A stretch of 4,409 nt of DNA from a virus (IMGVR_UViG_2734482545_000008), one strand, 5' to 3'; counted from the first letter of the stretch, positions 1,220-4,409 are shown. Program-made: numbers and translations. The notes: a model not told the origin generated them from the letters alone.

Positions 1220-1294
1220 NNNNNNNNNNNNNNNNNNNNNNNNNNNNNNNNNNNNNNNNNNNNNNNNNNNNNNNNNNNNNNNNNNNNNNNNNNN
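1220..1294. other. Run of 75 N (assembly gap or masked sequence)
   Basis: Directly visible. The 314-aa ORF 789..1733 in the ORF track is an artefact of translating these N as X. Confidence 0.95.
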
Positions 1295-1310
1295 AGTTTC
1301 AGGAGGATTT

Positions 1311-1733
1311 ATGGCGAAACCTTTTACTCCCGAACAGCGGGAAGAACTGAAGACGCGAATTGTGGAACTCGTGCATCAGGACGGTCGGGTCACGATTCGG
1401 CAGTTGTCAGATGAAACAGGTATCAGTCGTGCGTCTGTCGGTCGCTTATGCATAGAACTGGTCGCAAGTGGTGATGTATATAATTCTGGCTACGGCTTAT
1501 TCCCGTCTGAACAGGCTCGCAAGGACTGGCAAAGCGCCCGCAAAAAACTCTCGAGAGTAAAGGTGAGGAAACCGGTTGTTGTTGATCCGGACCTTATCTG
1601 GTCATTACCTGACGGAGAAATACGCCGCTACGACAGGCGCCTGAATATAATCTGTCGCGAGTGCCGGAAGAGCGAAGCTATGCAGCGTGTACTGGCTTTC
1701 TATCAGGGTAATTTTCAGGAGGCGATACTGTGA
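1311..1733 (+). CDS. Small helix-turn-helix (probably winged-helix) DNA-binding protein, 140 aa; function unknown
   Basis: AGGAGG at 1301-1306, 4 nt before ATG 1311; stop TGA 1731-1733. The segment VTIRQLSDETGISRASVGRLCIELVASGDV has the hydrophobic/Gly/polar pattern of an HTH. No resemblance to the DnaC C-terminus, so it is a separate gene. Confidence 0.75.
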   Translation: MAKPFTPEQREELKTRIVELVHQDGRVTIRQLSDETGISRASVGRLCIELVASGDVYNSGYGLFPSEQARKDWQSARKKLSRVKVRKPVVVDPDLIWSLPDGEIRRYDRRLNIICRECRKSEAMQRVLAFYQGNFQEAIL

Positions 1734-1790
1734 ATGAAATTAGCTATCAGGCTTCAATTACCGCTGGCATTCGCATCAAAGGAGAGGAGC

Positions 1791-2147
1791 ATGGAAATAA
1801 AACCAGAAGATGAGTTAAGCAATATCGTTTTATTTCCGGTAAAAGAGGATGACCCTCGTAATCAGGTTAATTTTCTTTATGAGCCATCGGAAAGACCATA
1901 TTGCCATCACGCCTCTGTACGGGTTGACGAAAAAGAGCGTCAGGTCCGCTGTAAAATCTGCGGTGCGGTTGTGGAGCCGTTTGACTGGATGCTCTCTGTG
2001 GCAAAAAGAGAAACCAGACTGGCAGATGATGTAAGGCTATTGCGCCAGGAGGAACAGGAAAGGCGGAGAAATATAGAAAAGCTGATACAGATTGAGCGTA
2101 ACGCGAAAGCGCGGATACGCAGGGCGACAAAATCCAGAACTGAATAA
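1791..2147 (+). CDS. Small zinc-ribbon-like plus coiled-coil protein, 118 aa; hypothetical
   Basis: GGAGAGGAG at 1781-1789 before ATG 1791; stop TAA 2145-2147. Putative metal site C-H-H…C-x2-C (YCHHASVRVDEKERQVRCKICG), followed by a charged heptad-like tail (RLADDVRLLRQEEQERRRNIEKLIQIERNAKARIRR). Alternative start ATG 1734 (abutting the upstream stop) would add 19 aa, but that stretch has two AGG codons and looks like RBS sequence. Confidence 0.65.
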   Translation: MEIKPEDELSNIVLFPVKEDDPRNQVNFLYEPSERPYCHHASVRVDEKERQVRCKICGAVVEPFDWMLSVAKRETRLADDVRLLRQEEQERRRNIEKLIQIERNAKARIRRATKSRTE

Positions 2148-2294
2148 TTAAATTTAGCACTGTTAAAAATTTAATCCTTAACCGGAGGGATTTCTGCACC
2201 CTCAAATCATCAGGAGACCACCCGAAAGGGCGGGGAGCAGTCACACATCTGTTTCCGATAGCCCCGTTCTAATGCTACACTCTTTGATATTTTT

Positions 2295-2981
2295 ATGACC
2301 CCAATAAACATATTTATGACAGTTGCTGATTTCAAACGGCCCAAATTGGAGCTCCCAAACGGGGCAAACAAACTACTACTGCACTCTTGCTGTGCTCCAT
2401 GTTCCGGTGAGGTGATGGAGGCGCTTCAGGCCTCGGGAATCGACTACACCATCTTTTTCTACAACCCGAACATTCATCCTCAGAAAGAGTATTTAATTCG
2501 TAAGGATGAGAATATTCGCTTTGCTGAACAACACGGCGTGCCGTTTATTGATGCTGATTACGACACAGACAACTGGTTTGAACGAGCCAAAGGAATGGAA
2601 TGGGAGCCCGAACGAGGGATCCGTTGCACCATGTGTTTTGACATGCGTTTTGAGCGGACAGCGCTGTACGCCGCTGAAAATGGTTTCAGTGTGATCAGCA
2701 GTTCACTGGGCATTTCACGCTGGAAAAATATGCAGCAGGTTAACGACTGTGGGCGGCGAGCCGTCGCGCATTATCCGGGCATGGTGTACTGGGATTATAA
2801 CTGGCGCAAGCAGGGCGGCTCGTCCCGTATGATTGAAATCAGCAAGCGCGAAAAATTCTATCAGCAGGAATATTGTGGCTGTGTGTATTCTCTGCGCGAT
2901 ACCAATCTACACCGCAAATCTCAGGGACGCCCTCTTATCAAAATTGGTCAACTCCACTACGGTAAAGAAGAGAAGGAGTGA
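2295..2981 (+). CDS. queH: QueH-family (DUF208) epoxyqueuosine reductase-like Fe-S protein, 228 aa
   Basis: Cys signature [11 protein letters not shown] near the N-terminus, [10 protein letters not shown] mid-protein and EYCGCVYS near the C-terminus, which I recognise as the conserved Cys/His pattern of DUF208/QueH. Start is uncertain: ATG 2295 or ATG 2316, neither with a clear SD. Stop TGA 2979-2981. Confidence 0.78.
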
Positions 2982-3002
2982 TTTTATGGGGCACCTTTCT
3001 GA

Positions 3003-3032
3003 TTGATTTCATATTGGCGAGGTAAGTAGAAT
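3003..3032 (+). promoter_or_regulatory. Sigma70-like promoter candidate: TTGATT, 18-nt spacer, TAGAAT
   Basis: -35-like TTGATT 3003-3008 and -10-like TAGAAT 3027-3032, in the intergenic region after queH and pointing into the masked block. Hexamer match only; not verified. Confidence 0.3.
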
Positions 3033-3130
3033 GACTGCGGGTGCTTGAGGCTATCTGCTTCAGGCATGAACACCAAAAGGCAGATAGAGAAAAGCCCCAG
3101 TTAACATTACGCGTCCGGCAAGACGCTTAA

Positions 3131-3471
3131 NNNNNNNNNNNNNNNNNNNNNNNNNNNNNNNNNNNNNNNNNNNNNNNNNNNNNNNNNNNNNNNNNNNNNN
3201 NNNNNNNNNNNNNNNNNNNNNNNNNNNNNNNNNNNNNNNNNNNNNNNNNNNNNNNNNNNNNNNNNNNNNNNNNNNNNNNNNNNNNNNNNNNNNNNNNNNN
3301 NNNNNNNNNNNNNNNNNNNNNNNNNNNNNNNNNNNNNNNNNNNNNNNNNNNNNNNNNNNNNNNNNNNNNNNNNNNNNNNNNNNNNNNNNNNNNNNNNNNN
3401 NNNNNNNNNNNNNNNNNNNNNNNNNNNNNNNNNNNNNNNNNNNNNNNNNNNNNNNNNNNNNNNNNNNNNNN
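3131..3471. other. Run of 341 N (masked or unsequenced block)
   Basis: Directly visible. Bracketed by a promoter-like element upstream and an intrinsic terminator downstream, so it probably hides a short + strand transcription unit. Confidence 0.95.
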
Positions 3472-3501
3472 GTCAGGCATCCTCAACGCACCCGCACTTA
3501 A

Positions 3502-3544
3502 CCCGCCCATCGCTGTGATCTCTCAGCGTTTCGGCGGGTTTTTT
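3502..3544 (+). terminator. Rho-independent terminator (nested GC hairpin plus U-tract)
   Basis: CCCGCC (3502-3507) pairs with GGCGGG (3533-3538); inner stem CGCTG (3511-3515) pairs with CAGCG (3524-3528); followed by TTTTTT at 3539-3544 and more T-rich sequence. Orientation matches + strand transcription; comparable to the tR-type terminators in the lambda nin region. Confidence 0.55.
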
Positions 3545-3564
3545 GTTGTTTATTTCCGGTGAAT

Positions 3565-3592
3565 TTGATTCGCGCACCTTCGCAGATAGAAT
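3565..3592 (+). promoter_or_regulatory. Sigma70-like promoter candidate: TTGATT, 16-nt spacer, TAGAAT
   Basis: -35-like TTGATT 3565-3570 and -10-like TAGAAT 3587-3592, just after the terminator and about 80 nt before ATG 3674. Same two hexamers as the candidate at 3003-3032. Confidence 0.35.
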
Positions 3593-3673
3593 CGACTCAC
3601 TTAAGTAGCGCGCAGGGAGAAGAGGGATGGACCCCGAACAGGGGAGAGCTATTTATCTGGAAGGATTCTGAAG

Positions 3674-3961
3674 ATGAAAATCGAAGAATTGCGTGAAATT
3701 TTTAGTGAAAATGGCCTCTATGCTGTGCGCGTTGAGAATGGAGCGATTGTCAGCCATTGCCGCATTAGATGTTTGCAATCTCAACAAAGGAAGAGCGGTG
3801 CTGTGTTATTTTATTTTTGTAATGGACTTCTGACGGACGGTTTTATTTTGCGTGAGGACGAATTTGTCACATCATTACGGGTTTTGAAAGAGATTGGTTT
3901 TAAGGCTGGTTTTCTGCTTTTGCTGAAGAATAAACTCATCTACAATCTTGAGCAGGATTGA
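3674..3961 (+). CDS. Hypothetical small protein, 95 aa, AT-rich coding sequence
   Basis: ATG 3674 preceded by GGAAGGA (3660-3666); stop TGA 3959-3961. No family recognised. Composition looks AT-richer than the replication genes (by eye, not computed). Confidence 0.5.
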   Translation: MKIEELREIFSENGLYAVRVENGAIVSHCRIRCLQSQQRKSGAVLFYFCNGLLTDGFILREDEFVTSLRVLKEIGFKAGFLLLLKNKLIYNLEQD

Positions 3962-3999
3962 ACTCCTGCTGTGTAACACCGTGCCACCGGAGAAAGCCG

Positions 4000-4353
4000 A
4001 TGGCACATATACAACTGGTCAAACAAACCTCTTCCGGATTACTTCTCCCGGCGACGCCGGAGAGTTGCGATTTTCTGCATCAAATCAAAATAGGTGAGTG
4101 GATACACGCAGACTTTAAGCGTGTGTGTAACTACGCATTCCACAAGCGTTTTTTCAAACTCCTGCAACTGGGTTTCGATTACTGGACTCCGGTCGGTGGG
4201 GCGATCACGCCTCGCGAACGAAAACTGGTGTCCGGTTTCGTTGATTACCTGTGTGAATCAGTAGGCCGGGAACATACGCCAGCTCTGAGCGAAGCCGCAG
4301 AGCAATTGAGGTGTACTGGCAATAGCGGACACTACCATTTGTTCTTTTTTTAA
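4000..4353 (+). CDS. Hypothetical protein, 117 aa
   Basis: ATG 4000 preceded by GGAG (3989-3992) with a 7-nt spacer; stop TAA 4351-4353. The track's longer version starts at TTG 3958 with no SD. No family recognised with confidence. Confidence 0.6.
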   Translation: MAHIQLVKQTSSGLLLPATPESCDFLHQIKIGEWIHADFKRVCNYAFHKRFFKLLQLGFDYWTPVGGAITPRERKLVSGFVDYLCESVGREHTPALSEAAEQLRCTGNSGHYHLFFF

Positions 4354-4409
4354 GCAGCCATCTGATGATATTTTTCCCTGAAGGCTGCCGGGGAGATATT
4401 CCCCAGACG

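Follow-up and report, generated by a model that had tools for sequence, protein, structure and literature searches.

What is encoded between a promoter-like element and an intrinsic terminator when most of the sequence that separates them is masked? This question is raised by a viral genome fragment, IMGVR_UViG_2734482545_000008, of which a stretch of 4,409 nucleotides (hereafter, the window) was analysed. On its + strand, an element TTGATT-N18-TAGAAT at positions 3003-3032 points into a run of 341 N (3131-3471), beyond which lies a nested GC hairpin with a T6 tract (3500-3544; -24.9 kcal/mol). From these three elements, all of which we confirmed at these positions, an earlier inspection of the same DNA (the sequence-only reading) had deduced a hidden + strand unit of roughly 0.5 kb containing a small RNA, tRNA(s) or a small protein gene. 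Our results indicate that the interval 3003-3546 is very probably a type I toxin-antitoxin cassette of the hok/sok kind and of the hokW/sokW/mokW lineage known from phage 933W, bearing the PGAP name hokD. Two of its components had escaped the sequence-only reading, namely, the antisense sok gene on the minus strand and the complementarity of the two visible edges of the mask.

The nearest relative of the locus is found in Escherichia coli FDAARGOS_944 (locus L001), which matches the visible sequence of the window from 1295 to 4306, with flanks 99.8% identical (3 mismatches in 1836 nt to the left of the masked block and 1 in 835 nt to the right). In L001, these two flanks lie 281 nt apart, and the interval between them is annotated by PGAP as hokD. 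Across related phage loci, the flank-to-flank spacing is 272-281 nt and never 341 nt. Consistently, a scan of species-representative genomes yielded 0 matches with the flanks exactly 341 nt apart and 8 with a gap of 265-295 nt, distributed among E. albertii (1), E. coli (2), Shigella flexneri (3), E. ruysiae (1), and a MAG (1). A second N run of the window (1220-1294) consists of 75 N that replace 314 nt of ydaV in L001. The lengths of the N runs are thus evidently unfaithful, as judged from these sequence comparisons, and coordinates or lengths built on the N count are unreliable. The N counts of 341 and 75 disagree with the relatives, from which the content of the masked block has to be inferred. 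By homology to L001 3837-4117 (281 nt), the block would contain, in this order, the Shine-Dalgarno sequence (SD) and start codon of mok, the Sok target hairpin, the sok promoter, the hok SD, the hok coding sequence, and a 3' stem-loop. What is described below of the toxin ORF and of mok, as well as of the sok promoter and the Sok target, was accordingly read in the relatives, the letters of the window being N at these positions.

The unmasked interval of the relative encodes a 51-aa protein of the Hok/Gef family, which matches the Pfam family HOK_GEF (PF01848) with 81.1 bits against a cut-off of 22 and PHROG 251 ("MokW-like host killing") with E = 1e-32. Scores with the NCBIfam Hok models are below their cut-offs (55 versus 73 for the subfamily model and 39 versus 89 for HokA), so that there is no equivalog-level assignment, and the name hokD derives from the PGAP annotation of the relative. 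For comparison, we collected 80 IMG/VR loci with Hok proteins 88-100% identical to this one, to which a search with HokC added a second set. The 51-aa Hok is intact in all 45 distinct relatives. In L001, a 70-codon mok ORF starts 57 nt upstream of hok and is in frame with it, the two sharing a common stop codon. The mok ATG is kept in 44 of the 45 relatives; over all 45, the ORF is in frame with hok in 36 (1 with ACG for ATG), overlaps it out of frame in 6, and is 19 codons long in 3. Also invariant, in 45 out of 45 relatives, is the sequence TACG at Tyr47 of Hok, where the codon UAC is followed by G within the motif CUACGAA (L001 4047-4062, alignment columns 309-315). We take this site to resemble the anticodon loop of tRNA-Arg(ACG) that is edited by TadA. 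It has been reported that the hokC, hokD, and hokE mRNAs undergo A-to-I editing, resulting in Cys at the position of Tyr47 (bioRxiv 10.1101/2025.08.07.668861).

The promoter identified by the consensus scan (3003-3032, + strand) comprises the -35 hexamer TTGATT (3003-3008), an 18-nt spacer, and the -10 hexamer TAGAAT (3027-3032). Taken alone, such a match is within chance expectation, with 2 sites per 1 kb found against 0.7 +/- 0.8 expected. What raises it beyond chance is the conservation of the -10 element, as 56 of the 57 distinct upstream sequences of related loci have a TAnnAT exactly 6 nt ahead of the transcript start. Among these 57 sequences, the -35 region is variable, and the TTGATT of the window, which is atypical and combined with an 18-nt spacer, is unique. 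The 5' end of the hok mRNA is predicted to be G3039, located 7 nt past the -10 hexamer, with which position 1 of the Rfam family RF01794 aligns. Together with the fold of the full-length RNA of the relative, this defines a putative transcription unit at 3039-3546 (+ strand), which is ~446 nt long in the unmasked relative. Hence, the unit starts past the promoter and ends at the hairpin and its T run, as originally proposed, whereas the size of ~0.5 kb, like the window coordinates of the unit, is inflated by the N count.

The readable 5' part of this unit already carries the signature of a hok mRNA. RF01794 matches the window at 3039-3098 on the + strand (model positions 1-58 of 157; E = 2e-10) with 53.9 bits, which is below the gathering score of 59 because the other model positions are masked; in L001, the match is full-length and reaches 117 bits against the same gathering score of 59. 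Although RF01794 is labeled "sok antitoxin," a control search in E. coli K-12 showed that it matches the sense strand of hokC (L083 602-754), with the annotated sokC located on the opposite strand (653-711). What the family models is thus the hok mRNA leader in its sense orientation, and a + strand match marks the toxin mRNA rather than the antitoxin. A sub-threshold isrK match near hokD of K-12 (25 bits versus a gathering score of 50) was disregarded. On plasmid p2RM15115 of E. albertii (L177 599-772), we observed a hok leader (RF01794, 68 bits) accompanied by no annotated hok coding sequence and no convincing fbi partner, which appears to be a leader-only remnant.

The element that links the two sides of the mask is formed by the very 5' end of the predicted mRNA and a sequence close to its 3' end. 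The former, tac (translational activator element; GGGUGCUUGAGG; 3039-3050, + strand), is recognized by conservation and pairing, and is unchanged in all but one phage or chromosomal relative. The latter, fbi (fold-back inhibitory element; CCUCAACGCACCC; 3481-3493, + strand), is read directly in the window. Across the mask, the two can form 12 base pairs with C3487 bulged. This helix is present in the minimum free energy (MFE) structure of the full-length mRNA of the relative and in the RNAalifold consensus (columns 1-12/385-397). Over 45 sequences, 5 of the 540 sequence-pair cells are changed to G-U and 1 of 540 is broken, whereas changes of the bulged base are neutral. Since tac is nearly invariant within the phage and chromosomal clade, covariation support for the helix comes from the comparison with the plasmid clade only: IncF-type plasmid loci of E. 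coli, Cronobacter, Lelliottia, and Citrobacter carry a compensated tac/fbi pair, GGCGC/GCGCC, and keep the same spacing between fbi and the terminator. The repeat finder returned merely a partly offset arm of this helix, because of the bulge. A duplex-energy shuffle of the visible flanks was discarded, because intermolecular folding does not measure a specific 12-bp helix and random sequences of ~90 nt reach lower energies than the real pair. The complementarity of tac and fbi between the visible edges is a diagnostic feature of a hok locus.

Other parts of the visible leader fit the same architecture. The first 61 nt of the mRNA fold into a hairpin (3039-3098, + strand; -25.8 kcal/mol), in which the tac stem, closed by ucb, surrounds an inner hairpin whose stem shows compensatory A-U/G-C changes; this would represent the "open," metastable form of the leader. 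The upstream complementary box, ucb (3094-3100, + strand), has the anti-SD sequence GCCCCAG and was identified through its pairing with CUGAGGC of the mok SD, seen both in the MFE structure of the relative and in the consensus (columns 56-62/100-106). For the full-length mRNA of the relative (446 nt), the predicted fold, at -189.6 kcal/mol (z = -8.4), joins the 5' end to the 3' end. In the consensus fold computed with RNAalifold from an alignment of 45 distinct transcripts (75-95% identical), the tac/fbi helix, the ucb/mok-SD helix, the leader hairpin, and the 3' stem-loop are all recovered, and 10 pairs display compensatory double changes. When the open conformer, in which tac pairs with ucb, is forced in silico, it costs +12.4 kcal/mol in the full-length RNA and +0.9-1.9 kcal/mol after 3' truncation. 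Once the 3' end is trimmed to the GC-rich stem-loop, a stem between the mok SD and dcb appears in the forced open conformer; the unconstrained MFE structure of the truncated RNA retains the pairing of ucb with the SD.

The antitoxin gene is partly visible as well. Homology to sokC of K-12 and sokW of 933W places the 3' part of a minus-strand sok gene at 3084-3130, which corresponds to the descending arm of a long hairpin and a U-rich tail, whereas the 5' part and the promoter would be located in the masked block. When the ends annotated for sokC and sokW are carried over by means of the alignments, Sok maps to L001 3790/3796-3866 on the minus strand, with its 5' end at the same aligned position as those of sokC and sokW. 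The predicted RNA is ~71-77 nt long and overlaps the start of mok by 9 nt; as a 74-nt molecule, it is predicted to form one long hairpin and to leave its 5' tail single-stranded (-30.2 kcal/mol, z = -5.0). In the relative, the minus-strand promoter TTGCCT-N17-TAACCT is found inside the interval that corresponds to the block, and all 45 relatives have either TTGCCT-N17 or TTGACC-N18 followed by TAACCT or TAATCT.

The cassette has well-characterized counterparts. It is 92% identical at the nucleotide level to that of the Stx2 phage 933W (AF125520) over 425 nt, where, as in VT2-Sakai, the genes are known as mokW, hokW, and sokW. The 933W annotation, with a 213-nt mokW and a 156-nt hokW sharing their stop codon and a 9-nt overlap between sokW and mokW, has the same geometry as the relative of the window locus; the antisense RNA is ~71 nt, tac and fbi have the same sequences as in the window, and both cassettes reside on lambdoid phages or prophages. 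The 933W locus differs in its -35 region (TTTGCG), in having no terminator hairpin directly after fbi, in its neighbouring genes, and in its 3' stem-loop, the loop of which is 5 nt shorter.

The comparison with E. coli K-12 is instructive in another way. For hokD (relF) of the cryptic prophage Qin, the Hok coding sequence, the 3' stem-loop, fbi, and a simple terminator align closely with the relative of the window locus, but the gene is truncated upstream: the homology begins at the hok SD, and relE adjoins. Consequently, promoter, tac, ucb, mok start, and sok gene are absent from K-12 hokD, which is not matched by RF01794 either, whereas the window locus keeps the complete leader. As what remains in K-12 hokD begins at the hok SD and ends with the terminator, the window locus represents the complete form of the K-12 stump. 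The K-12 locus hokC (gef)/mokC/sokC matches RF01794 on the hokC sense strand with 118 bits; sokC, on the opposite strand, has a 9-nt overlap with the start of mokC, and mokC ends at the stop codon of hokC, just as mok and hok end together in the relative. SokC of K-12 is 59 nt long, whereas the Sok hairpin of the window lineage contains a 16-nt insertion, which accounts for its length of ~71-77 nt. Immediately downstream of K-12 hokC lies IS186.

The hok/sok loci of plasmid R1 and other IncF plasmids, whose architecture and regulatory logic have been described (PMC9841398), display the same order of elements: promoter, tac, ucb, mok, sokT, sok promoter, hok, 3' stem-loop, fbi, and terminator. 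They match RF01794 with 93-109 bits, but at the DNA level, similarity to the window lineage is confined to ~45 nt in the area of the sok promoter and hok SD. They further differ in the tac/fbi pair (GGCGC/GCGCC versus GGGUGC/GCACCC in the window lineage), in mok, which is out of frame with hok and annotated as DUF5431, and in the -10 element, which is the consensus TATAAT.

According to the R1 model, the full-length mRNA is inert and is slowly processed at its 3' end, whereupon it refolds and is either bound by Sok and decayed or translated into Hok through coupling to mok (PMC9841398). The elements recognized here allow a similar sequence of events to be envisaged for the window locus. The promoter at 3003-3032, which is seen in the sequence, would drive transcription of a ~446-nt mRNA from G3039, ending at the terminator at 3500-3546. 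In this transcript, as in silico folding and conservation show, tac pairs with fbi and ucb with the mok SD, and because of these pairings, the full-length mRNA would be both untranslatable and blind to Sok. Slow trimming from the 3' end, as in R1 hok/sok, would then take away the terminator and fbi and proceed as far as the GC-rich stem-loop, which would protect the truncated mRNA. Thereafter, judging from the energetic switch calculated in silico, tac would change its partner to ucb, and the mok SD thus freed would pair with dcb. Translation of the 70-codon mok could next drive that of the overlapping 51-aa Hok, by a coupling of the kind known from R1.

Meanwhile, the unstable Sok, transcribed from the minus-strand promoter in the block and ending near 3084-3090, would pair with the refolded mRNA and commit it to decay. 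If Sok were not replenished, Hok would be produced and, as in other members of the family, would depolarise the inner membrane; by the same analogy, depletion of Sok might be triggered by loss of the element or by a shut-off of transcription, for example, by an infecting phage. For R1 hok/sok, 3' exonucleolytic processing, cleavage of the hok-Sok duplex by RNase III, and membrane killing by Hok have been documented (PMC9841398), and we presume that processing, RNase III cleavage, and killing take place at the window locus in the same manner.

The main residual doubt concerns the intactness of the masked copy. Conceivably, the locus is hok/sok by descent, but the copy in the window is an inactive remnant, its masked block being disrupted or its product no longer killing. 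The N block exceeds the interval of the nearest relative by 60 and differs from the 272-281 nt of every relative; IS600 borders the prophage fragment, whose replication gene is frameshifted and truncated; and degraded relatives do exist, such as K-12 hokD, from which leader, mok, and sok are entirely missing and in which RF01794 finds no match, and the leader-only remnant on the E. albertii plasmid. Moreover, the chromosomal hok loci that have been assayed gave no post-segregational killing (bioRxiv 10.1101/2025.08.07.668861). Against this, the visible -10 element, tac, ucb, Sok 3' end, fbi, and terminator are intact and identical to those of FDAARGOS_944, the other mask of the window is equally unfaithful in its length (75 N for 314 nt), and each of the 45 distinct relatives keeps an intact 51-aa Hok. 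On balance, we regard an inactive remnant as rather improbable.

The hairpin downstream of the block invites a different interpretation, namely, that it is a terminator of the phage early operon, of the tR2-tR4 type invoked by the sequence-only reading, and that the promoter hexamers have arisen by chance. The site indeed falls within the interval between the replication genes and Q of a lambdoid prophage, the position of the hairpin alone is compatible with the lambda nin-region terminators tR2-tR4, which belong to the pR early operon and are overridden by N antitermination, and, as noted above, the promoter match alone does not exceed chance expectation. The structure, located at 3500-3546 (+ strand), comprises an 8-bp outer stem (3500-3507/3533-3540), a nested 5-bp hairpin (3511-3515/3524-3528), and a U6 tract (T6 at 3539-3544); a 77-nt segment containing it folds with z = -3.3. 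Our terminator scan missed the hairpin because its loop exceeds the 8-nt limit of the program. In most relatives, the site is occupied by the simple hairpin CCCGC-UUCG-GCGGG with a U run downstream, whereas in the window, L001, and L002, a ~24-nt insertion in the loop forms the nested hairpin. The terminator begins 6 nt past fbi, an arrangement common to K-12 hokD and plasmid hok loci from four genera. As the hairpin thus co-occurs with fbi in hok loci outside phages, it is a component of the cassette and most probably not a member of the tR2-tR4 series. In many phage relatives (L019-L025 and 933W, L172, among others), homology stops within a few bases of fbi and the terminator hairpin is missing; its loss exactly at the end of fbi implies that it moves together with the edge of the cassette and not with the phage backbone. 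Given also the constant spacing between the -10 element and the transcript start in 56 of the 57 relatives, a tR2-tR4-type terminator combined with a chance promoter is very improbable, although the hairpin may incidentally stop read-through from upstream.

The two remaining interpretations, both raised by the sequence-only reading, are refuted by the unmasked relative. A stand-alone small RNA or tRNA(s), such as occur in tRNA-carrying lambdoid prophages, would agree with a short unit that has its own promoter and terminator, and a tRNA cluster (Ile, Arg, Thr, and Gly; L001 6276-6586, before the lysis genes) is indeed present in the relative, but it is located ~2 kb further downstream. With ARAGORN, neither the window nor the unmasked interval of the relative yielded a tRNA or tmRNA, in line with the earlier impression that the visible 5' end, which is matched by the RF01794 leader at 3039-3098, does not resemble a tRNA. 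In the covariance-model search that the sequence-only reading had proposed, RF01794 was the only Rfam family to attain its gathering score (in the relative), and the relative encodes a Pfam-significant Hok. Among the three contents initially suggested for the unit, it is therefore the small protein gene that stood, and we assign practically no probability to a stand-alone RNA. A minus-strand protein gene running from 3510 through the block (MGGLSAGALRMPD) can be dismissed with equal firmness: the ATG at 3510 opens a frame that is unbroken across the X residues of the mask (3127-3510), yet in L001 this frame stops after 34 codons (4052-4156), overlaps the 3' end and untranslated region of hok, and matches no Pfam family, leaving the non-coding sok as the only minus-strand gene.

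Returning to the hok/sok cassette, its surroundings show how it is inserted in the phage genome. The unit is bracketed by its own promoter and terminator, and its neighbours vary among related phages, the two features by which a moron is recognized; PHROG likewise assigns the Hok family to the category "moron." Homology between loci breaks just upstream of the -10 element and just after fbi or the terminator. The gene for epoxyqueuosine reductase QueH (2295-2981; Pfam, 220 bits), which directly precedes the cassette in the window, is found upstream in 3 of the 80 phage loci with a near-identical Hok, and the 95-aa ORF that follows the cassette is found downstream in 22 of the 80. The prophage, lambdoid and decayed, thus carries the cassette as an autonomous moron, placed in its early-right (nin-like) region. 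Enrichment of hok in prophages has been reported (bioRxiv 10.1101/2025.08.07.668861).

Signs of decay and of further small units are seen elsewhere in the fragment. Copies of IS600 (IS3 family) at 1-104 and 4307-4409 cut the replication-protein gene on the left and a DUF1367 gene on the right, and the window looks like a piece of prophage flanked by IS600 copies or like a short-read contig whose ends are repeats. Compared with FDAARGOS_944, the replication-protein gene (105-782) has a 2-nt insertion in an A run (311-312) and a 10-nt deletion (448/449), indels that split it into ORFs 80-343 and 513-782, making it a pseudogene in the genome from which the window derives. A DUF977 ORF (1311-1733) matches PHROG 142 ("Ren-like exclusion protein," E = 3e-44) and is a candidate for a second exclusion or moron function in the fragment. 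Just past the hok terminator, a second promoter-like site, TTGATT-N16-TAGAAT (3565-3592), is positioned upstream of the 95-aa ORF (3674-3961), which has no Pfam or NCBIfam match and belongs to PHROG 340, of unknown function; the site and the ORF could constitute another autonomous small unit.

With respect to function, two departures from the standard picture deserve mention: either the cassette serves mainly in abortive infection or superinfection exclusion rather than as a stabiliser, or the 60 extra N reflect a real insertion in the mok/hok/sok core. That one or the other applies is unlikely, although not so much as to be disregarded. If the exclusion role were true, the shut-off of transcription by an incoming phage would deplete Sok and free Hok, and A-to-I editing by TadA at the CUACGAA motif of Hok Tyr47 could act as a further gate.

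Collectively, these results assign the masked unit to a locus of an already-known kind, annotated in near-identical genomes and phages, and biologically it is nothing new. The hok/sok loci of lambdoid and Stx phages have been annotated since the sequencing of 933W, and their enrichment in prophages has been surveyed. Stabilisation, phage defence, and persistence are candidate roles of such cassettes in prophages, on which the window locus gives no new purchase. Its value lies in annotation: the masked interval is explained, and the promoter and terminator recognized by eye turn out to be the two ends of a hok mRNA. The complementarity of tac and fbi across the gap thereby identifies a hok locus even when its coding part is unreadable.
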